NCBI GenBank assembly: GCA_964494005.1
Contig: CAZBQE010000001.1
Coordinates: forward strand, 8,126 to 60,621
Length of the DNA: 52,496 nucleotides
Origin: an uncultured Candidatus Peribacteria bacterium
Lineage (GTDB): Bacteria > Patescibacteriota > Gracilibacteria > Absconditabacterales > Absconditicoccaceae
Direction: 5' to 3'
The notes beneath the pieces were generated by a model, which worked only from the letters and a program-made list of their open reading frames with translations, had not been told where the DNA came from and made no database searches. Positions within the stretch are counted from its first letter, which is position 1, and every line of letters starts with the position of its first letter. The translations under genes were made by a program, and so were the position numbers. Below are positions 5,518 to 52,496 of this stretch, piece after piece.

Positions 5518-7077
5518 ATGGTAGAACAAATACCACAGACTACACCAGCACAAACACAACAGCATATACCTGTGCAAATGCAAGTACAACCAAAAAGTCA
5601 GAAGGTTATGAAAGTAGATCTGCAGCAGATAAAATCTTTTCTCGATGTTGCAAAAAAATATCTCGGAAGTGTATATAATTTTTTCAAAGATAACAAAAAC
5701 AATAGCAAAGTGATGCTTTTTTTGGCAATAATTACATTTGGTATCGCGGTGTATTTCGGTATTCAGCTGTATAATAATATCATGTATCTTAAACACAAGA
5801 CGCCAGAACTTGCTGCGATCAAAAGTTATGATGTTCGTGAGTTGCAGGATAATGAATTAACAAAAGATATTATCAAGACTTCAAATGTTTTGAGTGATCT
5901 TTTGGAAGAGGATGCATTGATTGGATGAGAAACAGAAAAATATACTGATTACTTACAATCACTCCAGATACCATACACGTATCTTCTTCAATATATCTAT
6001 CTCCCTTCTCTCAACGTATGGAAAGAAAAATATACCAACAAGATCGATACCAATTTGATTGGATTGAATTTCTTGGAAAAGAATCCGTACAATGATATTA
6101 CTTTGTTGCAGAGGCGAGGGGATTTTTTCAAAAATTTATGAGACAATAATGAATACAATGATGTACTTGATATGCAGATTGGCGATTTCGTGGAAGATGA
6201 ACAAGGATTTTTTAGTATGCCGATCACGGTCTCTTTTCAGGCAAATTCGAAACGTGCATTTCTTTTGCTCTCTGATAAACTTTCTATAATGTCAAATAAG
6301 GAAAATATTTCATTGATCAATGAATTCTTCTATTATCTTTGGAATGAAATCAAGCAAGACAAGGAAGAAGCCATCAAAAATTTGGAAGAGGAATACACAG
6401 AGGAGTTTGGAACTGGTGAAATAATCAATCAAGATAAAGTAATTGGCTATCATTTGTACAATTGGATTTTTAATGATGGTAAGAATACACTTATCGACGA
6501 TACTATCATAGACAGGACTATCAAGAGCATTATCTCCTGTAGCAATGAAACCGATGAAGTGTGTTATTACAAATTTAGGGAAAGATATAGAAATATTCCG
6601 AGTTTCGGATATCTGATCGGAACAGATTTTGGTAGCAATGGCGCAGAAAATCTCAAAAAATTTGTACAACAACTTACACCAATTTTCTCTATCAAGACAT
6701 TTGAATTCGATAAGATAAAAGCGCCTACGCTTTCCAACGTAAGCAATAGTAATTACAAAGGGACCGTTACTATTATTGTATACGGAAGAAGTGCTTCTGC
6801 TGAAGAAGTGAAAGAGATTGCATGAGCGTTAGGAAATAAATGTTTATGAGAAGATAAAGCGTTAACGATACAAGATTGACTTAATCTTATCCAATCAGCT
6901 ATTGTGAGATTATCTGATCTTAGTAAAGTAGATAAAAGCTATGGTGATAATCTCTGGGAACTGAAGGAAATTATAGAGGAACTAGATAGTACATATCCAG
7001 ATCTCAGCAATTACAAAAAAACTATAAAGCTGTTTGAGCTTTATAGAATGCTTTCTGACGCAGGACTCTGTAAATAA
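5518..7077 (+). CDS. hypothetical membrane-anchored protein (519 aa, single TM)
   Basis: Track ORFs 5518-5928 and 6172-6825 are in the same frame and joined through TGA. It starts 4 nt after the previous stop. The TM is VMLFLAIITFGIAVYFGIQLY. Stop is TAA at 7075. Confidence 0.7.
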
Positions 7078-7080
7078 CCT

Positions 7081-7164
7081 AACAATTAACAGTGAATAAC
7101 GAACAATGTATGAATTTTTTTTATATTTTTCTATAGTTGTTAGTTATTAGTTGTAAGTTGTTAG
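7081..7164. repeat. heptad-periodic imperfect palindrome (AACAATT/GAATAAC words facing GTTGTTA/GTTATTA words)
   Basis: The arm aacaattaacagtgaataacgaacaatg faces ctatagttgttagttattagttgtaagttgttag. It lies between convergent genes, and the right arm overlaps the YebC stop codon. Confidence 0.7.
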
Positions 7165-7907
7165 CTGGAAAGGTTGTGCCATACTTGATCAATATCTTCA
7201 TCTTCTTCGAGCGCATCCAATGGTCTATAGAGTTTTTGGGTGTTTTCTTCGTTCAATTTTACCGTGTTTTCAGGGAAGAATTGGATATCCGCTTCCGTAG
7301 TGTGATAGTTTTTTAGTCATTCTTGTACTATTGCGAAATTTTTTTTATCACAATAAATTATTACAGAATTCTCTTCCATTTCGATATCGCTGATCGGAAG
7401 TTCCATAGCATATTCTTCGAATTTCTCTGTATTCAACGGTAGGACTTTTTCTACTGTTTTTCCTTTGTCTTGTATTGTTTCTGAAATTCCATCGATAACA
7501 AATACTCCTTGTTCTTTGAATTGCCGAGCAACAGATCCAATAGCTCCCATCGTTCAGCCGTTTTTTTGTATGATATTTTTGATGCTTGTTGAACTTCTGT
7601 TGGTATTCGAAGTTAGTGCTTTGATCAATAACGCGACACCTTCCGGTCCGTATCCTTCGTAAAAAATCTCTTCCAATTGTTCGCCCTCAAGCTGTCCAGA
7701 ACCTTTCAAAATAGCTTTTTCTACAACATCTTTGGGAAGGTTATATTGCTTAGCTTTACTTAAAGCTAGCTCAAGTGATGGATTCATACTTGCATCAGCT
7801 CATTTTCTTGCAGCGATTTGGATAATCTTACCTACTTTTGCGTAGGCTTGTGATTTCTTCGCATCTCATGATGCTTTTCTCGCTGCGATACTATGCCATC
7901 TTCCCAT
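7161..7907 (-). CDS. YebC/PmpR-family DNA-binding regulator
   Basis: MGRWHSIAARKAS-G-DAKKSQAYAKVGKIIQIAARK-G-ADASMNPSLELALSKAKQYNLPKDVVEKAILKGSG matches the YebC N-terminus. It joins track ORFs 7554-7787 and 7317-7550 through TGA. Confidence 0.9.
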
Positions 7908-9007: not shown

Positions 9008-9032
9008 AATTTTAAAACAAGAAATGAATGAT

Positions 9033-9124
9033 AATGGTAAATTGTCCTTTGGACGTGTATTCGGACTTCGTCCGTAATTAGCATTTCGTGCGTAATTTTT
9101 TTGTAATTACCAATTATGCGAAGC
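9033..9124. repeat. AATTAC-punctuated mini-hairpin array (inverted copy of part of 33385-33532)
   Basis: The reverse complement reads ctaattacggacgaagtccgaatacacgtccaaaggacaatttaccatt. This is near-identical to gctaattacggacgaagtcctaatatacgttccgcagggataaattaccattt at about 33480. Confidence 0.8.
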
Positions 9125-9127
9125 TTA

Positions 9128-12152: not shown

Positions 12153-12878
12153 TTATACTATACAATATCTCACGATTTCCTCTTTTTCTTTATACATATT
12201 ATGCAGTTCTTTCCAGTTCTCGAGTTTATCGATATCGATGTTACCGATTCTCGTTCTTCTCAGTTGGATCAAAGTTCCACCGAGTCCAAGATCCTTACCA
12301 AGTCGATATGCGATAGATCTGATATAGGTTCCCGATCCGACATCGAGTTTGAGCTGTAAGACAGGAAAATCATATTTCAAAATTTCATATTTCTGGACCT
12401 TCATCACCTTATTTTCTTCCCTTATTTTACCTTTTCTCGCATCATCGTACGACTTTTTTCACGCTATCTTTTTTGCACTAAAAGCGGGGAGTGGTAACTC
12501 AAATTCTGGGATTAACTTATCCAACTTTCTGTTTATCTCCCCCAGGCTTGGCACTTCAACACTTCATGACTCCATTTCAAGACCTACAATTTTTCAATTC
12601 TGCATTCTGTATTCAAAATTCTGAATTTTTTCTCGTATTTCCATGTCCCACGTGTCGGTCACCTTCGAAAAATCAATCGTAGCGATATAAGATTTATCCT
12701 TTCAAATAATCTCCGTTAGATTCTTGGTATCATTATCCAATGCCAAAATCATCAGTCCCGTAGCCATAGGATCGAGCGTTCATCCGTGTCAGATTTTTTT
12801 GTGAGGGATATGTTTTCTGAGAATACGAATGACGTCAAAACTTGTTATTCGTGCAGGTTTGTCTACAGCGAGAAACAT
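12153..12878 (-). CDS. truB: tRNA pseudouridine(55) synthase
   Basis: MFLAVDKPA-ITSFDV, KI-G-HG-G-TLDPMATGLMILALDNDTK, DKSYIATIDFSKVTDTWD and GSGTYIRSIAY match TruB. The frame is continuous through 6 TGA. Confidence 0.9.
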
Positions 12879-13004
12879 AAAAAACTAATGAATAATTAAA
12901 AATTAAGAATGCGAAGTCCAGCATAGCTGGGAAAAATGTTGAAATTGTTTTATACTTATTATTGGTATATAACAATAGTTTATAAGTTTACAATTCAATC
13001 ATGA

Positions 13005-13083
13005 GTGCAAAGTTCAAAGTTTTAAGCTCAAAGCAGTAATATTGTTTAAGAAACGGCTTTATGCTTTAAGCTTTAAGCTTGAG
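13005..13083. repeat. heptad-periodic imperfect palindrome, AAAGTT/AAAGC family
   Basis: The arm gtgcaaagttcaaagttttaagctcaaagc faces gctttatgctttaagctttaagcttgag. The same word family occurs at 38458-38541 and inside uvrA at 25812-25890. Confidence 0.75.
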
Positions 13084-13173
13084 ACAAATGTATTATTTAT
13101 GTCTAAATTTAGTTGATTTTGTCTGTCAAACCAATAGTATTTTGGTGATTTTTTATCCTATTCAAACAAAAGC

Positions 13174-13890: not shown

Positions 13891-13919
13891 TAAACTTTAG
13901 ACTTTAGATTTTAGACAGT

Positions 13920-15264: not shown

Positions 15265-15280
15265 AATATTATAATAATGA

Positions 15281-15352
15281 CAAATGATAGATTATAGATG
15301 ATAGATTTTTTCTTTCTCTATTCTTATTTATCATTTATCATTTATCATTTAT
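15281..15352. repeat. heptad-periodic imperfect palindrome (GATAAAT/GATAGAT family)
   Basis: The arm caaatgatagattatagatgatagat faces tatttatcatttatcatttatcattt. The same family occurs at 16865-16943 and 37441-37566. Confidence 0.75.
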
Positions 15353-15371
15353 AATTAGTTATTTTAAAGGT

Positions 15372-16062: not shown

Positions 16063-16078
16063 CTTTTATAGAAAAAAA

Positions 16079-16126
16079 CCCGGCCATGCATTCCGGGTTT
16101 TTTTGTTCGCACCCGGGTGGGTGCGA
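16079..16126. terminator. two adjacent hairpins forming a bidirectional terminator between convergent genes
   Basis: AAAAAAA-cccgg-ccatgcatt-ccggg-TTTTTTT is followed by tcgcaccc-gggt-gggtgcga. Confidence 0.6.
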
Positions 16127-16150
16127 GTATTATTTTTAGTTCTTTACTGG

Positions 16151-16756: not shown

Positions 16757-16864
16757 GTCATTGCCTATTAAAAGTTAAAAGCGTCTTTCTATTTCTAGAT
16801 GACGCCCTCAGTATACACATTGACCTTAAAGGAAACTAAAGATTACCTTAAACCTAATTTAAGG

Positions 16865-16943
16865 AATGATAAATGAGAGATGATATATGATAAATTGATT
16901 GAAAATAAAACAATCTATCATTTCTAATTTATCATTTATCATT
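16865..16943. repeat. heptad-periodic imperfect palindrome (GATAAAT family)
   Basis: The arm aatgataaatgagagatgatatatgataaatt faces aatctatcatttctaatttatcatttatcatt. Confidence 0.7.
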
Positions 16944-16945
16944 GT

Positions 16946-17599
16946 TTATTTAGCAATTTGGTATCCAAATCCCTTTATCGTCTCTATCAATGTCTTTCAT
17001 AATTTTTTTCTAATCGTAGAAATATAAACGTCGAGCTTTGCATCTTCTTCAAAAATTTGATCATTTCCCCGGATCTCTTCGATGATCTCGGTTCTGGAAA
17101 TACTCCTTCATTTTCTCTCCAAAAGATATTCAACAATCTGAAATTCTTTCAAGGTCAGTTTGATTTCTTTGTTGTTTTTGAATATTTTTTTCTGATCTTT
17201 TTCGAGACGAATATTTTTATATTCAATACTATTTGCAGTGCCAGATCTTTTAGTTATCGCTTGTATCCTCGCATCTAGCTCTTTCAAATCAAATGGTTTC
17301 ACGATATAATCATCTGCACCGCAAGCGAATCATTCGAGTTTATCATCGAGTTCTCATTTTGCTGTCGCCATGATAATCGGCGTTGTGGCGTGAGTTTTTC
17401 TGATATTTTTACATAAAGTAATTCCATCCATGCCTGGCAGCATGAGATCCAAAATGATTACATCAAAATGATGATGTTTACAAATCTCCAGTGCATACAA
17501 GCCATTTTCAGCTCGCATCACGTCGTTGTGTTCAAGCTCAAGATATTTTTTGATATTGTTTCCGATAGTTTTGTTGTCTTCGACGAGAAGGATTTTCAT
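16946..17599 (-). CDS. OmpR-family response regulator
   Basis: MKILLVEDNKTIGNNIKKYLE, DVIILDLMLPGMDG, ADDYIVKPFDLKELDARI, and a winged-helix tail LTLKEFQIVEYLLERK. It joins three track ORFs through TGA. Confidence 0.9.
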
Positions 17600-17642: not shown

Positions 17643-17742
17643 CAAACCCCCAATCCCCCTTGACAGGGGGCTATATGAAAAAACATTTTTTTTATATTTT
17701 TCTTAGCTCCCGCCCTGTCAAGGGAGGGTCGGGGTGGGTTTG
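17643..17742. repeat. GC-rich long inverted repeat (CAAACCCCCAATCCCCCTTGACAGGGGG ... CCCTGTCAAGGGAGGGTCGGGGTGGGTTTG)
   Basis: The arms are about 30 nt with an AT-rich loop of about 40 nt. It sits in the 164-nt gap between the histidine kinase stop and the response regulator start. Confidence 0.8.
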
Positions 17743-19059: not shown

Positions 19060-19248
19060 GGTTTAGAAATTAGAAATTGAAAATTAGAAATTATATTACG
19101 GATATACCTTAAATAAACATTAAATACAAAATTACCATCAACGTTATGTATATATCAAAAATACACATCACAAGAACAAAGTCAAGTAATGTTGACTTTT
19201 GTAAATATAACTATATAGTATAAAAAATTTATTTTTTCTACGAATACT

Positions 19249-19578: not shown

Positions 19579-19600
19579 ATAATAAATTTATTTTAAATAA

Positions 19601-19625
19601 AAAAATCCGCACTAGGCGGATTTTT
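19601..19625. terminator. bidirectional rho-independent terminator
   Basis: AAAAA-tccgc-actag-gcgga-TTTTT lies between convergent genes. Confidence 0.6.
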
Positions 19626-22712: not shown

Positions 22713-22787
22713 ATGTAGAATTCAGAATGTAGAATGCAGAAATAAATTATTTCCAAGCTATTGTATACTCGCATCATAAAAGAAAAA

Positions 22788-22809
22788 ATCCGTAGAGGCG
22801 GATTTTTTT
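22788..22809 (+). terminator. rho-independent terminator
   Basis: atccg-tagagg-cggat followed by TTTTTTT. Confidence 0.55.
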
Positions 22810-22940
22810 AGTTTATAATACTTTATAATGTATAGTTGAAAATATATAGTTTATGGCATTACTGGAATATATTATCACAATAATATTATAGTCGATAAGA
22901 AGACAAATTACTTTATTGTTAGTTATTCATTCATTATGTT

Positions 22941-24044: not shown

Positions 24045-24240
24045 GAAAACAATGAATAATTAAAAATGAATAATGAATAATGAAAGAATTGCTGAAATGG
24101 AATATTGTATAAAACAGTTCTTGAAGTATAATTCTCGTATATAGTAGTCTAAGTATATTCCGATTTTGTGTTTTTTGCAAAAAAAGTGAACATAAAGCCC
24201 ACATTCCCTTGCGTTTTCTTTGAAATGTTGTGTATTTTGG

Positions 24241-27200
24241 CTATTTTACTATTTTTCCATTATCTAGTCTAATTATGTCATCTGCGAATTTCAAAATACT
24301 CTTGTCATGCTCGATCATAAGAATAGTGTCTCCCTTATCCAAAAACTGTTTGATGACTTTCATAAGCTTAATGATATCATCAGCATGCAATCCTACGGTT
24401 GGCTCATCAAGAAAGTACATCGTATGTCATTTGTAGGTTTTCAAAAGATGTTTTACAAGTTTAAGTCTTTGACTTTCTCCACCGGAAAGTGTATGTGCGG
24501 GTTGTCCCATCTTGAGATAGCCGAGTCCGATATCTACCATGAGTTGTAATTCTTCGCGGATATGGTCCATCTCAGAAAAGAATTCCAAAGCGTCTTTGAC
24601 ATACATTTCCAAAATTTCAGAAATATTTTTTCCTCTCCGTTTGATTCACAAAATTTCTGTTTTGTATCTTTTTCCATTACAGAGTTCACAAGGTATGTAG
24701 GTGTCCGGTAGAAACTGTAGTTCTACTTTTTTGTAGCCATAGCCGTCGCAGGCAGGGCAGGCTCATTTTTTTGAATTGAAGCTGTAATAGCTTGCATTAA
24801 ATCAGAGATATTTGCTTTCCATGGTTCCTGCAAAGAGTTTCCTAATATGATCAAAAGTTCCGATGAAAGTAGCAGGACAAGATCTCGGTGTTTTTCCTAT
24901 ACTGGTTTGATCGACATAGATAGTATTTTTGATGTCTTCATGTCCGCTAATAGTTTCCACCGCAAGATCTTGGTAGAATTCTTGGATGGCTAGGTTTTCG
25001 TAGTGTTCGTATTTGTCCTTGTGCATGACAGGTGCTGCGAGAATATCAGTCCGATTCCATCCTTTTTTCAAAAGTTCCAATCTGATAAAACTCTGGATGA
25101 ATTTCTGTTTCTCATTCAAAAATCTAAACAGCGTCGTATACATCAGCGTAGTTTTTCCAGCTCCAGAAGGGCCAGTGATGATAGTGAACGTTCCTAATCT
25201 AATTTGCGTATCAATACTTTGGAGATTATGTTTAGATGCTTTTTTGATGGTGATGAAATTATTGCTCGGTGTATGACTAAATTCTGCTGTGACTTTTTTC
25301 TTTCACAAAATATATTGTGCTGTCAGGGTGTTGGATGTCAAAAATTCATCATAAGGTCCATTGAACATCACCTTGCCTCAGAAATCTCCAGCTCCCGGAC
25401 CTATTTCTACAACCCAATCAGATGCTTTGATAAATTCATCATTATGTTCTACAACGATAATCGTGTTGTCCATCTCTCTTAATTTTTTTATTGCCGTAAT
25501 CGCTCTAACGATTTCTCTGGTATCGAGTCCAATCGTAGGTTCATCTAAGACATAAATAATTCCCGTTAGTTTGTTTCCGAGCTGTTTGGCTAATCTCAAT
25601 CTTTGGATTTCTCATCACGAAAGTGTGTCGATTCATCTCTTTAGACTCAAATATCCGAGTCCCAGATCTTGGATAGTCTTGGCTCTATCGATGAGTGGAT
25701 TGACGATTCTTGCTACAAGATTTTTGTCTTTGTTGTTATGTTCTTTGTACAAATCAATAAATGCAATCAATTCATTCAATGGCATTTTTTGTAATTCTGC
25801 GATGTTGAATTTAGTTCAAAGCTCCAAGTTTCAAGCTTCAAGCTGCACTTTAGACGACTTTAAACTTCAAGCTTTAGACTTTAAGCTAAGAAATACATTC
25901 AGACTTTCTTTCTTCAATTTCGTTCCATTACATTCAGGACAGGTTTTCATATCGAGCATCACTTGGAAATCTACGGTCAAAAGTCATTTTGCATATTGGT
26001 CTTTGATAATTTCCTCGATTCCTTTGTAATACATGCTCATATATTTTCCTCCATAATTCACTCTAATCAATTCTTCGTCTCAGAAAAGTACGACATGCTG
26101 AAATCGTTCAGGGAGATTTTTCCATGTTTTGTCGGGATCGATACTGTATTTCTGCGCTAATTTCAAAAGCAATGATTGTCCGAGATTTGAATCTCTTCGT
26201 GGCAAAATAGCTTTCATATATGGACTTTCCGGATCTAATATTTTGTCAAAATCCACCTGCAAAATCTCTCCAATTCCATGACAGGTAGAACATGCTCATT
26301 CCTGTCTATTTGGTGAAAAATGCTGCGGCGTAAATTCCGGATAGGTGATATTACAGTCTGCGCAGTACATTTTGTCGGTAAACCGTTTTATATTTGAAAA
26401 ATCTGAAGAATTGTCTGAAGAATCTGATATAACCGAATTTTTTTTGTTTGATGATTTTTTCATGGGTTTCTCAGATTTTTCTGTTATGTATATTCCGAAC
26501 TTTTTAAACTCGCCGAGTATCTTGATGATATCTTCTTTCAATCTTCATAATTTAGCTTCTTCGACGGTGACTCTATCGTAGATACCATAGGTCTGGATTG
26601 GGAAATATCCGATTGGAATATTCGGCGTTTCGAGGTAGAAATATTCTATAGGATTCAATTCTGACGAATCTGAAACATCTGATATATTGTTTTTTTTCTT
26701 TGTTGTTTTAGTCGTATGTTTTTCAGATATATCAGATGTTTTCTCAGATTTTTCAGCTACTATTAGGTAGCGGGTAAATCATTTCCCCTTTTCTACTTTA
26801 TTTCTATTTTTTCTGACGAATTCCATGAGATCTTCTTTCTTTTCAAATTTTCCTGATTCTTGCAAAAGATATATTTTCTGATTGAGATAATGGTTTTGGA
26901 TGTCATTCATGATTTGTTCGATGGTCTGTGGTTTGATTTCTTTTCCACAGTTATAACAGTAACTATCACCGAGCTTTGCATAGAGCAATCTCAGATAATC
27001 ATCGATTTCCGTAAGCGTTCCTACCGAACTTCTCGAATTTCCTCACTTTTTATTTTGTTCAATCGCGATAGCAGGGGAGAGTCCGGTACAGTGGTCGATA
27101 TCCGGCCTTTCTCCCAAATTGAAAAATTGTCTCAAGTACGAGCTGAGTGATTCTATATATCTATATTGTCCTTCCTTATATATAGTATCGAATGCGAGCG

Positions 27201-27366
27201 ATGATTTACCAGAACCGGAAACTCACGTGATAGTAATCAACTTATTTTTCGGGATTTCAATGTCGATATTTTTCAGATTATGAGTTTTTACTCCTTGAAA
27301 GGTAATCTTATTTTCCATATTTCCGACATTCTGGATGATATGTTTTTCTACAGATTTCTTTGCCAT
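24241..27366 (-). CDS. uvrA: excinuclease ABC subunit A
   Basis: Nine track fragments share one frame through many TGA. Motifs: [18 protein letters not shown], zinc modules, [23 protein letters not shown] and [10 protein letters not shown]. True stop is TAG at 24241. Confidence 0.95.
25812..25890. repeat. AAAGC/AAGCT-family heptad repeat inserted in frame inside uvrA
   Basis: gttcaaagctccaagtttcaagcttcaagctgcactttagacgactttaaacttcaagctttagactttaagctaag encodes [26 protein letters not shown] at a site where UvrA normally has only a few residues. Confidence 0.75.
26396..26483. repeat. ATCTGA-family imperfect palindrome in frame inside uvrA
   Basis: The arm gaaaaatctgaagaattgtctgaagaatctgatataacc faces gggtttctcagatttttctg. 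It encodes [28 protein letters not shown]. Confidence 0.65.
26659..26756. repeat. ATCTGA-family imperfect palindrome in frame inside uvrA
   Basis: The arm ttctgacgaatctgaaacatctgatatatt faces tttcagatatatcagatgttttctcagatttttcag. It encodes [33 protein letters not shown]. Confidence 0.7.
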
Positions 27367-27412
27367 ACTCTATTTAGAAATTGAAAATTAAAAATTAACA
27401 ATGATTTTATTT

Positions 27413-27476
27413 GTCATTGCGAGGAACGAAGCAATCTAAAAATCAAATAGGATCGCCACGCTATGCTCGCGATGAC
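27413..27476. repeat. GTCATTGCGAG palindromic element
   Basis: The arm gtcattgcgaggaacgaagcaatc faces gatcgccacgctatgctcgcgatgac. It is related to 34745-34818. Confidence 0.75.
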
Positions 27477-33384: not shown

Positions 33385-33532
33385 AATTAGCATAATTTGC
33401 TCATTTCATTCGCATAATTTCATTCGCGTATATTTGCTCCCTTTGGTCGCGTAATGTTGATTATTAATTACGACCATAGGGCTAATTACGGACGAAGTCC
33501 TAATATACGTTCCGCAGGGATAAATTACCATT
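33385..33532. repeat. AATTAC-punctuated mini-hairpin array
   Basis: It reads attagcataatttgctcatttcattcgcataatttcattcgcg ... taattacgaccatagggctaattacggacgaagtcctaatatacgttccgcagggataaattacc. Confidence 0.8.
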
Positions 33533-33553
33533 TATTTTGTTTTTTTAAAGTCT

Positions 33554-34156
33554 ATGTTATTCCTCAATATTTCCAGTGATTATGTCCATCTGCTTGATGA
33601 TCAGGACGAACAATTCTTACCCCGTAATACGATAGAAACTAATTTATGACCTGCAATTTTGGAATATACCAAAGCTCATCCCGTGGAGACGATAGTTCTC
33701 CTCAATGGCCCAGGCGGATTCACGAATCTCAGAGTCGGGACATTGACGCTCACTATGATGAATGAACTTTTACTTCACGATACAGGAACCTTTATTCCCT
33801 TGGCTTCGATCACGAAAATTGACTTTTATACTTATGCGTATACTCAAGGTCGATTACCAAGATACGGTATCATTTATATCGGACAGAAACACAATGTACG
33901 AAAATTTGATGCGGAAACTAAATCTTATGAACAGATTACTCTAGAAGATATCACATATTCTGACGACATATTTCTCGATCGAGTTCGTGATCCGTATTGG
34001 AAGAATGATGAACAGATGGTCTTCTTTTCGATGAGCAACAATTCCTTATTTCTCAATTATCGTGGCGATAGTCACAAAATTGAACTCATGGACTTACATT
34101 TGCCAATGACGATGAGTGTAGAACCACAATATATGATTGAGCCAACTATGAACTAG
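33554..34156 (+). CDS. tsaB: TsaB (YeaZ)-like t6A biosynthesis protein
   Basis: IVLLNGPGGFTNLRVGTLTL matches the TsaB GPGSFTGLRIG motif. ATG 33554 joins track ORF 33659-34156 through one TGA. Confidence 0.6.
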
Positions 34157-34293
34157 TTAATAGTGAATAGTTAATAGTGAATAGTGATGGTATTTGTTTT
34201 TGGTATGGACTATTGTATATGTACGATAGTTGATAAGTATACAAATTCTTTCGTTGTTCGTTATTTGTTTTTAGTTTTTCATTCAATGTAGTT

Positions 34294-34744: not shown

Positions 34745-34818
34745 GTCATTGCGAGCAAGGCGAAGCAATCTTAATAGAATTATTTAGATTGCTTCATCAC
34801 TTCGTTCTTCGCAATGAC
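34745..34818. repeat. GTCATTGCGAG palindromic element
   Basis: The arm gtcattgcgagcaaggcgaagcaatct faces agattgcttcatcacttcgttcttcgcaatgac. Confidence 0.8.
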
Positions 34819-34957
34819 TAGTCTGCTTACAGCAACTCAATTTCGTCACTTCACGTTGGAATGGTGTTTTTTTTAGTTGACTTTTTTTATAATATAGATA
34901 CAAGAATAAAGTAAACATAAATATAAACTAATAGAAATAGAATAGGAGGAAAAAAAT

Positions 34958-35985: not shown

Positions 35986-36108
35986 ATATGACGACTAAAT
36001 TAATGAAAAATTAAAAGTGAAAAATGAAAAACGAAAGAATTATCTTGTTATGGACTTTAGTAGTGTACAATAGTTCATTTTAGCAATACCACCATTATTA
36101 ATTATTAA

Positions 36109-37428
36109 TTATTCATTTTTCATTATATTTTTCTTGATCTCCTCTTTATCACTCCACTTTCTTTTTCCAAAATTCGTCAGCTGTATAGTCTCATGGCCCT
36201 TTCCAGCGAACATTACAACGTCTCCAGGTTGCACCAATTCGCATGCAAATTTGATCGCTAAGGTTCTTTCTGGGATAGTAAAAAAATCTTTTCCCTGAGT
36301 TTTTTTGACGTTCATCGTCAATTGTTCGAGAATTTCTAATCTATTTTCGGTATCGGGATCATCGTCGGTGGCAATCAAAATATCACTGTATTTATCTGCA
36401 ATTTCTCCCATAATCGGTCTTTTGGTTTTGTCTCTACATCCGGGTGCGCCAAAGACAGTTATTAGTCTTCAGGTTCATTTGATTTTGCTCAAATATTCCA
36501 AAGTCTTTTCCAGTGCATCAGGCGAATGTGCAAAATCCACGAAATAGTAACTTCCGTTATGATGTATCGGTTCCATCCTTCCTGTGATAGGAGCGACTTC
36601 TTCGATAGATACTATTGCTTGTTCCATAGGAACTCAGACTTGGATAGTGACACTGAGTGCAGCCAAAATATTGTAGACATTAAAATCACCGACAAGTTTC
36701 GTATGTACATCATATGACTTACCCAAATAGGTGAATGAGAACTTTGTTCCTACTGGTGATATCTGGATATTTTCCGCTTTGAGATGTGATGAAGCGACAA
36801 CACTGAAACTAACTTTTTTGTCGAATGGCATTTCATCATACCGTTTCCTTCCTACTTTATCATCTGCAGGGAATGAAGCGTATTTATTTTGTTTTTTGTT
36901 CGCAAGAACATATTTAAAAAGTTTTTCTTTGGCTTTGATGTAGCGTTCCATAGTGCCGTGGAAATCCAAGTGATCATGCGTCACATTCGTTAATATCGCA
37001 AAATCAAATTCTACTCATTCAAATCTATATTGATTCAATCCATGCGATGATGCTTCGAGAACGGCGATTTTGCATCCAGAATCTTTTGCTGTTGCCAAAA
37101 TCGACTGCAGATCATAAACATCGAGTGAAGTCATTTTCTTTTTATTTTCTAAATTCTGGTTACCGATTTTGATGTTTGCAGTACTGACCATTACCGTTTT
37201 GGCTACATGATCGTTCAATATTTTGTGAATCAAATTTACGGTCGTTGTTTTTCCATTCGTTCCCGTGACGCCGATTACGAAAAAATTTCTGGAAGGGTAG
37301 CTGTATAGCGTGTTTGCTATCTGTCCGTTCAATTTTTTCCATAACTGATAGATAACGCTATCCTTGAGTAGGAAGTAGAGTTTATCGTAGAAAGTAATTT
37401 TCTTGATGAGTGACTTTAACATACACAT
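36109..37428 (-). CDS. murE: Mur ligase, MurE-like (UDP-MurNAc-tripeptide synthetase), short N-terminal domain
   Basis: [61 protein letters not shown] and VFGAPGCRDKTKRPIMGEIA...ATDDDPDTE match MurE. Confidence 0.85.
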
Positions 37429-37440
37429 TATATATAATAT

Positions 37441-37566
37441 AAAATTATAGATGAGAGATGATAAATGATAGATAAAGGACTTTATTTTTTATGAACTATT
37501 ATAATTTTACTATAGTCTATTTTAGCTATTCAATAATTTATCATTTCAAATTTATCATTTATCATT
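37441..37566. repeat. heptad-periodic imperfect palindrome (GATAAAT family); right arm overlaps the rsmE 3' end
   Basis: The arm attatagatgagagatgataaatgatagataaagg faces caataatttatcatttcaaatttatcatttatcattg. Confidence 0.75.
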
Positions 37567-38268
37567 GTTTTTTAATAGTCGTGCTCCGATGATAGCAGCA
37601 GTTTCCATTCTTAATATCGTTGTTCATAATCCGATGATTTGATATTTCTTGGTCGAAAATTTCTGATAGTCTTTGTTAGTTAATCATCATTCCGGACCAA
37701 TGATTCCGATACTATTTTTTTCTGATTTTTCGATGTTTTCTCGAGATGATTCTTGTTCTTTTTTATCGAAGATAATAATATCTTTGTTGTTGATATATTC
37801 CTGAATGTCTCTAGCGAACGAGATTTCCGGAATTTTCCATCCTCGTGATTGTTCTACAGCTTCCTTACTGATTTTTTGTAATCTTTCTTCTTTTTTTTCA
37901 TTCCATTCTTTGATTACTGATCTTTCTGTTGGTCGAAAAATAATTTCATCAATACCGATTTCACTTAATTTTTGGATAATCAATTCCGCTTTGTCCCATT
38001 TGTTCGGCATAGCGACAATCATCTTTATGTTCCCTGGATTAACGTGATGGTGTGTTTCAGAAAGAATTGTTCCTTGTAATTCTTTATCGTTCCAATTATC
38101 TATACGTACTTCATATCTTGTTTTTTCTGCTTCATTAATAGGATCCTGTATTCGTAGTATATCACCGATGTTTGCTCTCATGACTTTTCTTACTTGCGAC
38201 AAAATTTCAGCACTCTCAATAGTTACTGTATCTGCTTTTTTTTTGTACGTTGTGATAAATAGCTGCAT
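37552..38268 (-). CDS. rsmE: 16S rRNA (uracil1498-N3)-methyltransferase
   Basis: MQLFITTYKK, IGIIGPE-[TGA][TGA]-LTNKDY (the conserved GPEGG) and IIGL-G-TTILRMETAAI match RsmE. Confidence 0.85.
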
Positions 38269-38274
38269 AACAAG

Positions 38275-38409
38275 AAAAGATTGAAAGATTGAAAGATTGA
38301 GACATTGAAAGATTAATTTCTCTCCCGCTTTGCGCGGACTTCACTTCGTTTCGCATTTTTCAATTCTCCATATTTCCATTTCTTCATATTTCCATGTTTC
38401 CATTTCTCC
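38275..38409. repeat. heptad-periodic imperfect palindrome (GATTGAAA family) with a GC-rich core
   Basis: The arm gaaaagattgaaagattgaaagattgagacattgaaagatt faces tttttcaattctccatatttccatttcttcatatttccatgtttccatttctcc. Confidence 0.75.
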
Positions 38410-38457
38410 GTATTTTTGTAGCATTTTGGACTAATAATGCAATAGGACTTCTGTAAG

Positions 38458-38541
38458 AAGCATAAAGTTTCAAGTTTCAAGCCCAAAATTGCTCATTAGC
38501 TACACGGCAGCTTTACACTTTACGCTTTGAACTTTGTGCTA
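38458..38541. repeat. heptad-periodic imperfect palindrome, AAAGTT/AAAGC family
   Basis: The arm gcataaagtttcaagtttcaagc faces gctttacactttacgctttgaactttgtgc. Confidence 0.75.
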
Positions 38542-38629
38542 AGTTTGTTCTCATCTAGTGTATTTGCAATTGCATTTTATTTATTTTTTGCTACATACTA
38601 GAGTATATTTATTTCACGTCAATATTTGT

Positions 38630-39121: not shown

Positions 39122-39147
39122 ACAAATATTGTGTAAACTCACTATAG

Positions 39148-39280
39148 TTCGCGTAATTTACTTCGCGTAATTACTTACAAATTACGATCAATTACATCCG
39201 CTAAAGCGGATAAATTACATTCAATAGGATAAATTACCAATTACGTTCCGAAGGGACAAATTACGACCGAAGGTCACATT
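39148..39280. repeat. AATTAC-punctuated mini-hairpin array
   Basis: It reads cgcgtaatttacttcgcgtaattacttacaaattacgatcaattacatccgctaaagcggataaattacattcaataggataaattaccaattacgttccgaagggacaaattacgaccgaaggtc. Confidence 0.8.
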
Positions 39281-39422
39281 ATATTTATAGTCATAGAATC
39301 CAATGATAAAATTTGTCGTGCCGAAGCCGGTAAAAAAAATAAAAAGAACATATACCCCCATCGAATCAGACAGAAAAAAGAAAAAAATCTGATTTCATTT
39401 TTTTTCTATAAAGATAATTCGA

Positions 39423-42124: not shown

Positions 42125-45100
42125 ATGACAAATCAAATGAATAGCATTGAATCATTACAGACTGAGGTAAATCAGGTAAAGACTGACTTAGATTTGCTTA
42201 AAGCAGTGACTAATGAGACAATAAAACAAACTAAAGCAGAAAGCTTAGCGCAGGATGTTACTGCGACCAAAGAAAAAATCAAAAAAGAACTTGATGCACT
42301 CAAGTGACTTACTGATGCAACATCTTTGGAAAACACAAGAAAACTTGAAGCTATGCTTTTGACATTGGAAACATCGACTACAGAGCTTACTACGCTCAAA
42401 GCAAGCGTTACTACACCTTTGAATTCTTCAGAAGAAACACCATCAGAACTTCAGGAAGAACATAAAGAAGAACAAGAAGATGAAACCAAAGAGAAAAATT
42501 GGATCAAAAGACAATGGGACGGAGTAACGAGCAAAGAAGAATGGAAAACAAACACCTGAGCTAATATTGCTCGTGTAGCATGAGGGATAGGCGCTGTTTC
42601 TTTGGCAGTTCGATGAATCAAAAAACTTTTTGGTCGAGGAAAAAAGAACAAAGAGAAAAAAGAAGGAGAAGAGTCTACAGAAAAAAAAGGATTTCGACAA
42701 AAACCATTAGGTAAATTTCTCAAATGGACAGGAATAGGAACGGGTGCTTATTATCTTATTCATGGCTTTGTTACCGGGAAATGGAATTTAAAAGATTTTT
42801 TCGATTGGAATAAATTAGGTGCGGATAACCATGATGAATCGTGAGAACAAGTAGAATCATATACAGAACGAGCAGAAAAAAATCCTGAACAGAAGGAAAA
42901 ATATGAATCATTTTGAGATACTGTTGATGCTTATTATGAAAGCATATTCGCCAAAGAATTGGATGCAGGATGGGAAGATGACGCTGATATGTCATCGATT
43001 CCAGAAAATGTGGCTGCGAAAAATGAGGGAAAGAATATCGATGTTACGCTCAAAGGTGTTGTTCCGTATTGTATGGATAATAGTTTTTCATCAGTGAAAA
43101 GCATACTTTCCGAAAAAGGTATAGAAGTTGATATCTTTCAAAGAGATATAGCGGAAATCAAGACACGGGTCGTATGATGGATAAAATGAACACTTGGAAA
43201 ATGATTACTATGATTCCTTTCTGTATTGCCGTCTTTTATCGCGAAGGGAATAGGAAGCACTACCGAAGAAAAAGTTGAGAACCGGATAAGCAGCGGAAAA
43301 CGTGAAGACCGTATTGCGGAATTGAAATTCTTTTTCAGACAGCAAGTGAGGATGACGGTCTATCTCAACCAGAAAAAAAATGAATTGATCAAAAAAATAG
43401 CTGAAGAAAAATTAGCAGTGAATAATCCGGAAAATTTCGAAAGTGTCGAAGAGGCATTGAATGACGCTGATCGAGTGGAGAAAGAAATCCTGAATAATGC
43501 GGATTATACCAGTTTTATAAACGGTAGCATACTCAATGCTGTCGATATTATGAGAAAAAGGGATGTCTTTTGAGATACACCTGATGAAGATGTTCAGAAA
43601 GTCGTGGATGAAATAGATACACAAAGAGATGAAATTATGGACGGAACTTGCGGCGATGATATCATCACGAGATGCAAAGCGGATTTTGAAGATGATGGAA
43701 AACTGGAGACAGCAAACTCCACGGTACTTACAGAGTCATGTAGGAATATCATCAACGATATTACAGAAGAAGTGGAATGACCTATGGAAGAATCCATGCG
43801 GAATATCTATGAAGATCTCAGAGATAGCAATGACGCACAGCTCAGACAGTTATTGAAGGAATCTCCGCTACTGAAAATGTTCGGGGATATTAAACAGTGA
43901 TTGGAAGATATGATTTTAAAAATTCAGAACGGAACTTTCACTAAGGAGGATCTGGTATCGTTAAAAAAAGTCGTCAACAATTATTTCGCTTTCAAAAAGG
44001 AATTGATGATAGGGGCGAATACCTTTGAACAGATAAAAGACGAGAATGGAAATATTGTCATAAGCTTAGGAAAATTTTTGCGAGGATGTCTACAGAATAT
44101 CTGAGAAGGATTATTCTGAGGACATGGATTCCGAGAAGGGGCATGATATGTAGTTACGTGAGCGATACCGATATTTACGGTCGTAGCAGGAGTGCTGTGG
44201 TTTAGAAAACCTAAGAATCGATATAAGACGTGAGTGGCAATATACAATACAGTACCAAGAGTAAGCCAATCGCTTCTCCGGACAACGAAGACGATAAATA
44301 GAAAATATATGTGACCGCCGAGTATGATTAGGAAAGCATTTTTTGAGGGTGCTACCGGACCTACAAAGTTGGAGGCTTCATTGATGCAAGGAAATATTTC
44401 TTTGCGCAAAGCTTCGCAGATAGTGGATAACGGCATGAACGGCAAATTCGTTTGAAGAAATACCAAGAGCATCCGATTGACGAGATACGGAGCTAACAAT
44501 AACATCGATACCATCAAGAAGATACTCATGGACAAGATATTTCCGACATTCAAACTTGTGGATGATGAGTTGGAAATGGTGGCCAAGAATTTTGATAACA
44601 GGACATGGAACAAATTGCTTTTGACCAGCACCAACAAGGATACCATTAATCTTATGAAAAAATATGAAGCTTTGCAGGTTTCTGGAGAGAAGAAATTGTT
44701 CTTTGATAAGATATTGGATAGTGGAGATCTGTCTAAATCAGATATCCAGAAGCTCATAAAGTATGCGGATGATATAGATATAAGTAATTTGGAGACAAAA
44801 GAACTTAATAAAATAGCTAAAAAGCTCAGTAAAGAAATCTCTAACCTTGCTGATGCAAATGCAATCAATGCAAAAATAACCGACCTCAAGAAGACAGTCA
44901 ATGTAGTGGATGTTTTGACTGATGCACAAAAGGCATGTCAAAAAATGATAAACAATAAAATAAGTGTATTACAAAAACAGGTGTGAACATTGAGTGGTGT
45001 GGAGAAGAAGATTATGGAATTGGATATTGATAATTTAAGAAAGTTAGCACAAGATATGAAACACTTGCCAGATGATGAGGTGAAGGTTTTAAATAACTTG

Positions 45101-45403
45101 TTGTGAACAAATGTTTCAATGAGATATATAAGTAAAATATTGAGTGTTGATGATCCAATGAAAATTCTTAGTAAAATGAATGCTGCGACAAAAATAGATG
45201 AGTTTGAAATTATCCTGAAAAGTGCAAAAAATGCTGATGTTGATGATATGATCCACGCATTAAAAAGCATTAATAAATTTGATGGATTCCATAAACAATT
45301 TTTGAAAAATGTTGGTGTGATGAGCGATGCTGTACGTACATTGAAAAACTCACAAAAACTAATGAAAACGTTGAAAATTCTCGCAAAAGTGCCTATAATC
45401 TAA
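42125..45403 (+). CDS. giant membrane-anchored helical protein A (1092 aa), unknown function
   Basis: Seven track ORFs in frame 2 (42125, 42326, 42959, 43226, 43901, 44477, 45119) are joined. I translated every gap and found only TGA, no TAA/TAG. Stop is TAA at 45401. It has an N-terminal coiled coil, an acidic tract, hydrophobic hairpins and K/E-rich helical text. Confidence 0.75.
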
Positions 45404-45432: not shown

Positions 45433-48400
45433 ATGGTTGTAGAGTTGAAGATAGAAAAATTGAAGACTCAAGTAGACCAGATAAAAGCTGACCTTATTTT
45501 TCTACAACAAGAAGCATCAAAAAATGTTGTAGATTCTAAAAAAACAGAAGAATTAGAAAAAGAAGTAAACAAGGTAAAAGCAGATATTCAAAAAGAATTA
45601 GATGAGTTGAAGTGAAAGACTGACCTTTTGTCTTCCAAAAAATCCCAAAAGCTGGAAGAAATGTTGATTACTATAGAGACATCAGCATCAGAATTAGCTA
45701 CACTCAAATTGTGAGTAAGTGAGGATGTGTCTTCTATCGAAGAGGAAGAAGATGAAGAAGAGGAAAAGAAAGAAGAGGGAAAAGGAGAAGATGAAAAAAA
45801 ACCAGTAAAAAATTGGTTTAAACAACAAATAGATGGATTCACTGATTCTACAGAAGAACATCATGGATGGAAAAATGTCGCTCGTGTAGCATGAGGGATA
45901 GGAATAGTGGCAATATGAATTCGAGGAATCAAAAAATTATTTGGATTGGGAAAAAAAGAAAAAGATAAAGAAAAAGATACGTCTCCATCATCAGAAAAAG
46001 AATCGACTGATGAGAAAAAATGATTTTGGGAGAGTTGATTCGGAAAATTTTTTAAACGGACAGGAATCGGAACGGGTGCATATTATATTACGCGTGGACT
46101 TGTGAGCGGTAATCGATGATTCAAAGATTTTTTTAATCGAAAGAAAAAAGAAACAGAGGATGATGCTAAAAAAGAAAAAAATGCTCGAGTAGAAAAACAA
46201 AAACAAGAAGTGGAGGATATAGCTTCTGAAGTTGACAAAGTAAATAATGAACAAGATCCTGATCAACAACATCAAGGTGTGCAAAACATTGAAACGCTTA
46301 TTGTTACCAAAAAAACGACCATAGAACATAAGATTGAAGAATTGGAAAAAGAATGAAAAGAAAAAAATAAACAAGAGATAGAAGAATTGGAGGATATACT
46401 AAAAAAACTTGAAGGATATGAAAATGAAATATACCAAATCGCTGACAGAGAAAGCGTACAATGACCTATTTCTTGAGCAAGTGAAGACATAGAATCTCCA
46501 GAAGAAGATGATGGTTTGAGTCATCGGACTCATGTACCTGGAGCAGCGATAGCGGTGACAGGATGAACAGCTGCAGGCCGATGAACAGCCAAGATTTTAC
46601 AGAAAACAAAACTTGCAGCAGAATCAGTACCAGAAGCAAAGGTGATATCTCAGACAAGAAAAGGATTCGAAAATATAGTACAAGGGCTTGAATATAGGTT
46701 ACTCGATGATCAATTACTGGATGTGCAAAAACAAAATATAAAGAAATCGATACAATATTTCAAAGAGGCAGGAGAAAATGCTGATGTTATAGAAGAATTG
46801 AAAATATGGCAAAAACTTTGAGATAAGTTACCTATAGAGACATTGAACGCTTTGGATATAGATCCGATTTTAGCAAAACAACTAAAAAACTTCTCCAATG
46901 ACGCAGAATTTGTTGAAGCTATAGCAAAAGCTAAAAGTGAAACACAGATAAAAAATATTTTCAAGGCTAGGGGAGTTATTAATGTTCCAGATGATGTAGT
47001 AAAATTATTGAAAACTGCTAAATATGCTAATGAAGTGAAAGCTATTTCTAGGGTACTTTCAGTAACAAGACCGATCAAAGCATTGGGAAGATGATTGAGA
47101 ATGGTTCCGTTTATTGATTTGGCTGCAGGAGGAATAGATGTATGGTTATATTTTATGGAAGCGAGAGAAGCTGATCTTATCAAAAAAACTAATGAACTAA
47201 GATGATCAAACAAACAACAACAAGCAAATATGCATCTTGTACTTGGTGCAATTGATCTCGCTGTCGGGGTAGGTGCAAGTGCTATTATATTTGCTTCAGC
47301 TTGTGCTTCTTCATGACCTCCATGATGGGTGGTAGGTGTTGTAGCTGCTACTGCTGCGTTAGTAACCTGGTGAGTGAGAGAGGTGGCGGATACGTATTAT
47401 TATGAATTGGTTGATTTTTATCTTAGAAACAAAGAAGATTATGTAGAAATGTATAGATGAGAGATTAAATCAGCGATTCTTCAGGCGACTGTTCGTGGGG
47501 ACGATTCTTTTTCTTTGTCATGAACGGAATCGTTTGCTGAGATATTTAATCGAAGCAATAGTATAGATAAAAATAAAAAAGTAACTTTGGAAGACGCATA
47601 TCGAACAATGATATATATTGAAGAAAAAAAGCATTATCCCACAGTTGGAGTACTTAATCCAAATTATCCCAAAGATCCTGATCAACCATTGGAGTGAACG
47701 GATCTCGAACATTATACCAAAGAAAAAGAGAAGTTGGATAAAATTATAGCATTGAGAATGGAATATATCAAAAAGTTTTTGCCACACACTACTACGAGTA
47801 CAGATAAGTCAGATTATAATAAATATATTGCTGATATACAATGAGCGAAGTGAATACATGCGATAGAACAGATTGTGGCAGATTCCAAAACGTATCAATA
47901 TATGAAACAAGATACAGAGTTTGCAGGATACATAGATATAAAAAAATATCAAGCAGCACAAAGAACATCATTAAAAAAAGAGAATGAAGTGTGGTTTGAT
48001 CAATTAGAATCTATGTACAAAAAAGATCCAGCTACGATAGTAGAGTTGTATTATTATGTGATAGAATATGATATGGTAGTCAAAGATGAAGAGAGTTATC
48101 AAAAAGAATATGTATGAGTTTCGTCTCAGATCTCGTTTATCAAAAGATATTATGAATATACACTAGCTCATATTCCACCAGAAAAAAAGATGTTTGTGGG
48201 AAATATTTATGATATTCCTTATACAAAAACAGAAGAAATGCTAAAAAATATGGAATCAGGAAAAATAGACATGAATCCTATGGCATTTACGGAACAAGAC
48301 ATCAAGAAGCGTTTGGTGTATGGACTAGAGATCAATAGATTTGAAGAATCACATGCTGAATATACATCAAATATCGGACAAAATATTATCTATAGAATAG

Positions 48401-52411: not shown

Positions 52412-52496
52412 CATGGCGTGTCTCATTTTCTGGGTGATATTCATGGCGTGTCTCATTTTCTGGGTGATATTCATGGCGTGTCTCATTTTCTGGGTG
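52412..52496. repeat. 30-bp direct tandem repeat, 2.8 copies, truncated by the window end
   Basis: The unit catggcgtgtctcattttctgggtgatatt is repeated head to tail. The first copy forms the palindrome gagacatgccatggcgtgtctc with upstream sequence. It is related to the GAGACG element family. Confidence 0.85.

Follow-up and report, generated by a model that had tools for sequence, protein, structure and literature searches.

Rickettsia is the main source of documented in-frame 'selfish' palindromes, and here we describe inserts of comparable behavior but different construction in the uvrA gene of an uncultured Candidatus Peribacteria bacterium, carried by a 52,496-nt stretch of DNA (CAZBQE010000001.1, positions 8,126-60,621 of the forward strand; hereafter the window). 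Rickettsia palindromic elements (RPEs) are described as short (~80-150 nt) palindromic repeats of several families, found also between genes, which have family consensus sequences and a conserved peptide, occur in dozens of unrelated genes, and are translated in frame as apparently fold-compatible loops of conserved housekeeping proteins (Ogata et al. 2000 Science 290:347; Ogata et al. 2002; PMC10969869). Like the RPEs, three blocks in the window's uvrA, termed cassettes below, are palindromic and able to form hairpins (arms 76% complementary at site 1), lie in frame in a conserved open reading frame (ORF) that is kept open (27 codons at site 1; no TAA or TAG in the variants examined), belong to a class with intergenic copies and several families, and would form loops of the host protein. 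Unlike the RPEs, their peptide is not conserved (46-81% amino acid identity among the relatives compared, vs 86-90% for the remaining UvrA), their arms are periodic arrays whereas RPEs are not built from tandem heptads, their words or whole cassettes turn over at fixed hot spots, in-frame copies are so far concentrated in uvrA, and the host is a candidate phyla radiation (CPR) bacterium that uses genetic code 25; RPEs are compared here by description, and no sequence relationship is expected. The observation made in an earlier note on this DNA was confirmed, and its interpretation was supported in every part that was checked; the likeness that it drew between the site-1 block and the Rickettsia elements is one of behavior rather than of family, since the peptide is not conserved and the arms are tandem arrays. 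The phenomenon therefore recurs in a reduced CPR genome, in a different construction.

Tandem heptamers form a second point of comparison, and those of the cyanobacterial STRR type were reportedly described by Mazel et al. in 1990. Heptanucleotide repeats are the commonest long simple-sequence repeats of prokaryotes; the TAACTGA repeats of Beggiatoaceae and cyanobacteria often sit immediately before start codons, are overwhelmingly intergenic, are accompanied by no recognizable ribosome-binding site, vary in copy number, place stops in all three frames when read forward, and have been proposed to originate by slippage (PMC4679880). Arrays in the window likewise consist of tandem 7-nt units, are mostly intergenic, often precede start codons and vary in copy number; unlike the STRR/TAACTGA repeats, in which one conserved word forms direct repeats that rarely enter ORFs, they use many words, these are often paired with their reverse complements, and the three arrays in uvrA are kept open and appear to be translated. 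[quoted passage not shown] The array hairpins described here share with MITEs and REPs their small size, hairpin formation, multiple copies and mostly intergenic location; unlike MITEs, the cassettes show internal tandem periodicity and unit-wise concerted change. Inverted repeats known to be embedded in protein-coding genes are transcribed and translated, as the uvrA cassettes are predicted to be; those repeats reach up to 284 bp, are perfect, and encode with both arms conserved regions under strong amino acid selection, whereas the uvrA arms are imperfect and periodic, and lie in an extra, non-conserved loop with no sign of selection on its amino acids.

We propose, at a probability of roughly 0.6, that the uvrA block is a tolerated, translated and hypermutable palindromic repeat cassette, a copy of a lineage-specific class of 'array hairpin'. 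An array hairpin consists of a short tandem array (usually of 7-nt, A- or purine-rich units), a loop and the reverse-complement array; the class fills many intergenic regions and, in uvrA, occupies three loops that are modelled as low-confidence coil. The frame evidence indicates that the ribosome reads through the cassettes, and their equal conservation at the three codon positions and low amino acid identity indicate that they are not shaped by peptide selection; an open frame would be the sole filter. Since the units show concerted change as well as unit insertions and deletions (indels), the DNA would evolve as a hypermutable sequence, through gene conversion among units or slippage during replication; ectopic conversion, recombination or another mobility mechanism may carry whole cassettes from site to site and from genome to genome, and the resulting K/S/E-rich and L/S/D-rich peptide would be a tolerated surface loop with no dedicated function. 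Three elements of this proposal go beyond the earlier note: the existence of three uvrA sites, the turnover of words and families among relatives, and the lack of peptide-type selection combined with fast change.

The window has a G+C content of ~35%, and its high coding density requires TGA to be a sense codon; the uvrA ORF (24241..27369, minus strand, 1042 codons) stays open solely under this condition. It contains 19 in-frame TGA codons, several of which align with invariant Gly residues of solved UvrAs, including those of the Walker A and 'LSGGE' motifs, and it matches the solved UvrAs over their full length (E = 9e-204, phmmer vs PDB). Among Absconditabacterales, 120 UvrA homologues were found, the nearest of which are annotated as Absconditabacterales/SR1. 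Because of these Gly alignments and the identity of the nearest homologues, the genetic code of the window is table 25, in which TGA specifies Gly. No tRNA genes were found in the window, and the sequence examined had no match in Rfam. For the comparisons below, the window copy (WIN) was set against the uvrA loci fetched from relatives (22 loci, L-numbers) and against homologous proteins (P-numbers).

The earlier note had placed an in-frame repeat block at 25812-25890, with no TAA or TAG and with three TGA codons read as Gly; coordinates and reading proved correct (the block was found at 25810-25890, and frame 0 contains neither stop). It lies before the conserved FNIAELQ, and by alignment to the Geobacillus UvrA (2r6f) at 'LVGGKH', a segment located after the second CxxC motif. 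Other UvrAs indeed have few residues at this point, as had been claimed: 2r6f shows a 23-residue gap precisely here (phmmer vs PDB), and basal Absconditabacterales and the solved UvrAs have ~6 residues. The block is strongly periodic. Its self-identity is 0.57 at a lag of 7 nt, 0.49 at 14 and 0.45 at 21, as compared with 0.08-0.33 at the remaining lags; the lag-7 value was reached in 0 of 20,000 shuffles and by 0.29% of all 81-nt segments across the window. Tandem Repeats Finder reports a period of 7/14 at 25857-25887, in the 5' arm, which is purine/A-rich on the coding strand, and a period of 7 at 25819-25844, in the 3' arm. The inverted repeat itself has arms of 37 nt (25806-25842 and 25865-25901), and the sense RNA is predicted to form a single long hairpin with regular interruptions (-26.8 kcal/mol; against dinucleotide shuffles, z = -2.2).

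The kinship that the earlier note had proposed with intergenic elements at 13005-13083 and 38458-38541 was borne out, these two being the best non-self blastn matches of the cassette in the window (13004-13079, 67% over 76 nt, E = 4e-5; 38464-38543, 70% over 80 nt, E = 1e-3), both full-length and collinear. The first element lies between truB (12153-12878, minus strand; TruB Pfam match) and a plus-strand lipoprotein-like gene; the second, in a divergent intergenic region, folds weakly (z = -0.95). An unpaired single array of the heptad CTTTAGA, a word of the site-1 arm, also occurs in the window (Table 1). A sliding 100-nt scan of minimum free energy across the window places the site-1 insert within only the top ~3%. 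In a GC-corrected fold scan, all three uvrA cassettes stand out, at z -2.7 to -3.9; the remaining outliers in coding sequence are irregular folds rather than array hairpins. Exact-seed and stringent Smith-Waterman palindrome scans missed the site-1 element because its arms mismatch once per unit; an ungapped scan with 28-nt arms detects it, and a k-mer complementarity scan was swamped by poly-A/poly-T. Exact matches of two cassette words were not found in viral contigs.

These data bear on the simplest alternative, namely that the segment is an ordinary low-complexity UvrA linker whose period of 7 and intergenic likeness arose by chance from an AT-rich composition. The low G+C content, the modest z-score of the single hairpin, and a mirror-repeat control that gave as many ungapped hits as the inverted-repeat scan are all compatible with it, but the lag-7 signal absent from every shuffle, the full-length collinearity of the two best matches, the presence of at least four independent word families with the same two-arm architecture at this site, and identical 30-mers common to different sites make it very improbable.

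Comparison with relatives sets the site-1 block apart from a protein motif. When the 120 homologues are aligned, the stretch that separates 'ESLNVF' from 'K(F/Y)NIA(E/D)LQ' is hypervariable: most close relatives carry 24-43 residues of unrelated sequence, and some crown Absconditabacterales have an array-free form of 13-14 residues, 'LTFKSKAKEKIQSGK'. The alignment for presence or absence that the earlier note had called for thus finds array cassettes in most close relatives and short forms elsewhere. Wherever DNA was fetched (22 loci), the long site-1 forms are all two-arm periodic palindromes built from differing words (Table 1), a closing stem CTTAG...CTAAG is common to different word families, and two relatives (L012, L010) each carry an extragenic array that matches their own site-1 word. 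Because the hairpin-array architecture persists among relatives whose peptides are entirely different, the sequences argue for a DNA-level heptad palindrome rather than a protein motif. The case named in the earlier note as fatal to its reading, an ordinary loop conserved in distant relatives, did not occur, since distant relatives lack the segment and close ones carry it as a nucleotide palindrome. The cassette is also dispensable: several relatives have 13-14 residues without arrays and basal ones have ~6.

Two further cassettes lie in frame in the same gene. The site-2 hairpin has a folding energy of -26.6 kcal/mol (z = -5.2, 0 of 200 shuffles), and by alignment to 2r6f and 3pih sites 2 and 3 fall around the UvrB-binding region. 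Cassettes are shared between sites as well as between genomes. Over 100 nt, the window's site 2 and L013's site 3 are ~88% identical; an AAAGTC element with an identical 30-mer occupies site 1 (L005, L011), site 2 (L011, L022) and site 3 (L002, L011); and CAGG/CCTG heptads occur at site 2 (L002, L008, L014, L016) and, as inferred from peptides, at site 1 (P0010, P0012, P0016, P0022, P0036). Cross-site alignment scores of 49-72 equal the level of same-site scores, the null maximum being 23, and one DNA element is read in different frames according to site (e.g. L011 site 1 vs site 3). Rather than a single recent insertion, site 1 is a long-lived hot spot, one of three in uvrA at which cassettes turn over and are exchanged.

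Several lines of evidence indicate that the cassettes are translated. At the three sites, more than 20 distinct variants have lengths that are multiples of three and a frame 0 without TAA or TAG, while these codons are common in the +1 and +2 frames, and because of this pattern the cassettes are predicted to be read as part of UvrA. In-frame TGA accounts for 26 of 350 codons (7.4%) in the long site-1 cassettes vs ~1.6% in the remaining uvrA, an enrichment of 4-5x, and in the window copy those left-arm units that lie in frames +1 and +2 read TAA where the one in frame 0 reads TGA. The reassignment of TGA to Gly visibly helps to keep the cassettes open, in agreement with the earlier suggestion that an expanded set of sense codons relieves one stop. 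The gene offers a concrete case in which codon reassignment alters the DNA that a gene tolerates, a TAA-to-TGA transition keeping an A/T-rich heptad open.

T4 gene 60 and mitochondrial 'byp' are translational bypass elements, and a hairpin-forming insert in a conserved gene, with conserved closing sequences CTTAG...CTAAG, might suggest that the cassette is similarly missing from the mature protein through programmed bypassing or mRNA removal. We regard this as hardly credible: the multiple-of-three lengths and stop-free frame 0 of more than 20 variants are a constraint that exists only if the segment is translated, and the cassettes do not belong with the bypass elements for the same reason. 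Dual coding by an antisense ORF across site 1 (25556-26029) was considered separately and rejected, as open antisense frames extend far past the insert in all relatives; long antisense frames at this site are a property of the gene and the code.

The manner in which the cassettes evolve departs from that of the surrounding gene. Between the window copy and L001, identity at codon positions 1, 2 and 3 is 82, 79 and 77% in the three cassettes and 87, 95 and 54% in the remaining uvrA (p = 1e-5 for the third position, cassettes vs remaining gene), amino acid identity is 64% in the cassettes vs 87.5% elsewhere (p = 4e-8), and the 25 codons flanking each cassette side behave as the remaining gene. 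The closest relative, L022, has 96% amino acid identity outside the inserts, and yet 12 of 78 nt differ at site 1, compared with 27 of 900 (300 codons) in the flanks (p = 2e-5). Over such short distances cassettes change ~5x faster than their flanks, and the L022 site-1 rate is ~2x the flanking third-position rate (p = 0.04). Change proceeds by units: in L022, heptad units 1 and 4 of site 1 carry the identical two substitutions (TTAAAGT to TTGAAGC), site 3 differs by one 9-nt unit, and site 2 holds a different family (the AAAGTC type in L022). The uvrA genes of the two genomes form a mosaic, with 78-100% nucleotide identity in 20-codon blocks and stretches of 97-100% interspersed with stretches of 78-90%, a pattern suggestive of recombination among related lineages. 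As far as these sequences indicate, the cassettes would be hypermutable, changing by unit-wise concerted change and whole-cassette replacement, the latter probably helped by recombination between lineages. In practice, cassettes inflate and scramble alignments of uvrA, a standard marker gene; they are recombination-prone and could mislead the annotation of code-25 genomes. The variable region of a diversity-generating retroelement was considered and rejected, there being no near-identical copy in the window (best 67-70%). The differences between the window copy and L022 run G/A and T/C in both directions and include unit indels, instead of being confined to adenines as in such retroelements; a reverse transcriptase was not searched for.

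Fast change at discrete positions might also reflect adaptation, with repeat DNA serving as a rapid diversifier of hypervariable UvrA surface loops, for instance for escape from phage or host inhibitors or for tuning contacts with DNA or UvrB. Such a reading accounts for three discrete hypervariable sites within an otherwise 87-96% conserved protein, for cassettes outpacing their flanks, for the exchange of whole cassettes between close relatives, for loop centers that are consistently Lys-rich, and for the position of sites 2 and 3 around the UvrB-binding region. Peptide composition, however, follows from the nucleotide words (AAAG giving K/S, CTTT giving L/F/S), evolution does not distinguish the three codon positions, the reading frame of one and the same DNA element varies with the site in L011, short array-free forms are common, and no partner or inhibitor is known; adaptive diversification is for these reasons doubtful, and ranks below the structural possibility considered next.

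The persistence of architecture in spite of changing words raises the possibility that the cassettes are functional nucleic-acid structures (a DNA cruciform or hairpin, or an RNA hairpin from either strand) kept for regulation, with the peptide as a by-product; possible roles include transcription or replication pausing, mRNA processing or stability, and binding by a heptad-reading protein. The same three sites retain a hairpin-array architecture, the third codon positions of the cassettes are more conserved than synonymous sites elsewhere and show no codon-position pattern, site 2 folds strongly, and the consensus site-1 hairpin of the AAGCTT family has 29 pairs with 89% of cells paired in 5 relatives, vs 18-57% when the partner is slid. 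The intergenic arrays, moreover, are fixed in position (after a stop or abutting an ATG) and in topology, which hints at class-wide use. Against this, the cassette is absent or cut to 13-14 residues in several close relatives, short-distance change is no slower than the flanking third-position rate, and arrays in the 5' untranslated regions (5'-UTRs) of uvrA and of its neighbor are gained and lost among relatives. The AAGCTT family gives no significant covariation signal (an equal score is reached by 70-147 of 500 shuffles), and we do not claim compensatory evolution; nor is there a significant difference in conservation between paired and unpaired columns (0.80 vs 0.70, p = 0.19). Several species have a weak sense hairpin, of -5 to -16 kcal/mol, that is less stable than its antisense counterpart, and the antisense strand folds better in 25 of 35 cassettes (p = 0.003), in line with the purine loading common to coding strands; no selection for an mRNA hairpin is apparent from this. 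A regulatory structure is on balance unlikely. The same low standing is given to the broader idea of a functional Absconditabacterales repeat system, in which the uvrA cassettes and the intergenic array hairpins would be kept at the nucleotide level, and a dedicated mechanism would copy or overwrite them between fixed sites and genomes, as structural or regulatory signals or as a diversifier of the three UvrA loops.

The tolerated-cassette reading has its own difficulties, which are gathered here because they weigh against it. Same-family cassettes of distant relatives diverge by ~20%, where synonymous sites diverge by ~45%; a plateau at ~20% is not predicted by pure neutral drift, and needs constraint on the repeat core, biased homogenization or repeated overwriting, so that the cassettes appear to lack protein-type constraint and yet to be bounded in divergence. 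In a family survey of 279 kb (the window plus the fetched loci, a sample centered on uvrA in which a preference for uvrA cannot be judged), the AAGCTT and TCTTTNA families have extragenic relatives (L012, L004, L010), whereas the TCTGA and AAAGTC families were seen in uvrA alone; an intergenic origin is therefore shown just for the former two. Within this uvrA-centered sample uvrA holds 10 of the 14 intragenic heptad arrays seen, and the presence of three hot spots in one gene is a further difficulty. UvrA trees are weakly resolved, leaving the count of cassette replacement events uncertain. Comparison of filled with short sites reveals no direct target-site duplication, no transposase occurs among the six neighboring proteins scanned vs Pfam, and no transposon-type terminal inverted repeats were identified at the cassettes, whose inverted ends (site 1, CTTAG...CTAAG; AAAGTC type, AGTC...GACT; site 3, GAAAAATCTGA...TCAGATTTTTC) are indistinguishable from the hairpin itself. 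The block is extra with respect to other UvrAs, as the earlier note had it; it is not a single recent insertion, and 'mobile element' is a stronger term than these data bear out. The structural check proposed at the same time did find coil, with a predicted local distance difference test (pLDDT) score below 50, at all three inserts (residues 207-235, 298-323, 498-517), in an AlphaFold model of modest quality that was built on a TGA=Trp translation (mean pLDDT 65.6); because some conserved UvrA regions are also modelled poorly, this gives weak support to disordered surface loops. The bounded long-range divergence, the route of inter-site copying and the concentration in uvrA leave room for a functional reading.

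Table 1. Features of uvrA, its cassettes and related arrays (positions are those of the window).
Feature	Position	Strand	Description
uvrA coding sequence	24241..27366	-	code 25, 1041 codons from first ATG, stop 24241-24243
Site-1 cassette	25810..25890	-	81 nt, 27 in-frame codons, heptad units AAAGCTT/AAGCTTN, two complementary arms
Site-1 5' arm (sense)	25848..25890	-	CTTAG C TTAAAGT CTAAAGC TTGAAGT TTAAAGT CG TCTAAAG; encodes LSLKSKAGSLKSSK
Site-1 3' arm (sense)	25810..25847	-	TGCA GCTTGAA GCTTGAA ACTTGGA GCTTTGA ACTAAA; encodes VQLEAGNLELGTK; complementary to 5' arm
Three in-frame TGA (Gly) codons of site-1 cassette	25867-25869, 25831-25833, 25816-25818	-	span 25816..25869
Site-2 cassette	26653..26760	-	in frame; TCTGA units, A-rich loop, TCAGA units; period ~9-12 nt
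Site-3 cassette	26383..26487	-	in frame; GAAAAATCTGA pairs with TCAGATTTTTC; hairpin z = -2.8
Intergenic relative of site-1 cassette	13004..13087	+	CAAAGTT-type array, loop, GCTTTAA-type array; hairpin z = -2.9
Second intergenic relative of site-1 cassette	38453..38540	+	CATAAAG TTTCAAG TTTCAAG ... GCTTTAC ACTTTAC GCTTTGA ACTTTGT
Unpaired single CTTTAGA heptad array	13891..13916	+	immediately upstream of ATG at 13920; blastn 83% over 23 nt
Further intergenic arrays	19060-19096, 24047-24090, 27370-27407, 34143-34284, 35999-36131, 38276-38415		
Site-1 word family AAAGC/GCTT			WIN, L001, L002, L008, L012, L013
Site-1 word family CAAGAT/ATCATG			L003, L014
Site-1 word family AAGATGA/TCTTTGA			L010
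Site-1 word family AAAGTC/GACTT			L005, L011

The class to which we assign the cassettes is best seen between genes. Period-7 repeats occur at 94 positions of the window (at a threshold of at least 17 of 21 matches), compared with 0-23 for the periods from 3 to 12, and nearly all of these arrays lie at gene boundaries, often as inverted pairs; arrays of 7-nt (sometimes 8-nt) units are seen in nearly every longer intergenic region. At least ten different array words occur, many as inverted pairs, and they vary by location (AATGATA, TTAGAAA, AATGAAA, CTTTCAAT and others). The inverted pairs are laid out as an A/purine-rich array, a loop and a complementary T-rich array, examples being 15271-15365, 16858-16957, 37441-37570, 2831-2912 and 7077-7166 (fold z -3.2 to -4.2), and the usual order is stop codon, A-rich array, loop, T-rich array and ATG, with no Shine-Dalgarno sequence visible. 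Arrays that abut start codons in this manner offer a lead on translation initiation in the phylum. A strand-specific function for the A-rich-arm-first polarity was rejected, inverted repeats showing the same order on both strands. Some arrays have long loops, whose sequences resemble -35/-10 promoter boxes by eye alone. Copy number is unstable: the window carries 5' arrays at uvrA and at its downstream neighbor that are missing from other relatives, and the array just upstream of the uvrA start (27370-27407) has ~4 TTTCTAA units in the window and ~16 in L004 (4280-4630), and is absent in L002, L005, L006 and L008. Because copy number varies, or the arrays are absent, among relatives, they behave like unstable microsatellites.

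No array hairpin of the window other than the three uvrA cassettes lies within coding sequence. Dispersed relatives of the cassettes comprise the two intergenic ones in the 52-kb window and the extragenic ones in L012, L004 and L010. In-frame heptad arrays were also seen in one other gene, a TsaB-like ORF of L010 (3230-3400; homologue of window 33554-34156) that carries (TTGAAAG)x3 and then (AACCTGN)x4, so that uvrA is not alone in having them.

Other repeats and hairpins accompany the arrays. Conventional terminators (a G+C-rich stem and a T-run) are present at 16063-16150, 19590-19625 and 22785-22815, so that heptad hairpins are not the sole terminator-like structures of this organism. By far the most stable fold of the window is a G+C-rich inverted repeat of 38 nt at 17646-17735, ACCCCCAATCCCCCTTGACAGGGGG ... 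CCCTGTCAAGGGAGGGTCGGGGT (~-46 kcal/mol), for which Rfam gave no match. A repeat of the form TTGTCATTGCGAG-N4-6-GAAGCAATCT is present in two copies (27405-27470 and 34745-34830), the latter followed by its own inverse (AGATTGCTTC...CGCAATGAC) to form a long palindrome, and L007 has a comparable 'CATTGCGAGGAGGC' downstream of uvrA. A further class of intergenic repeat, at 9008-9127, 33400-33553 and 39122-39302, consists of clustered AATTAC(G)-rich words among small G+C hairpins (such as GGACGAAGTCC, CCGCTAAAGCGG and CCGAAGG). Toward the end of the window, two adjacent and very large ORFs (42125-45403 and 45433-50385, 1092 and 1650 amino acids) have similar N-terminal regions, with a coiled-coil-like start, an acidic stretch and then 'KGF..GKF.K.TGIGTGAYY', and by this likeness look like putative paralogues. 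Finally, a perfect 30-nt tandem repeat of 2.8 copies (52412-52496), which continues past the window end, encodes a repeated HPENETRHEY on the minus strand.

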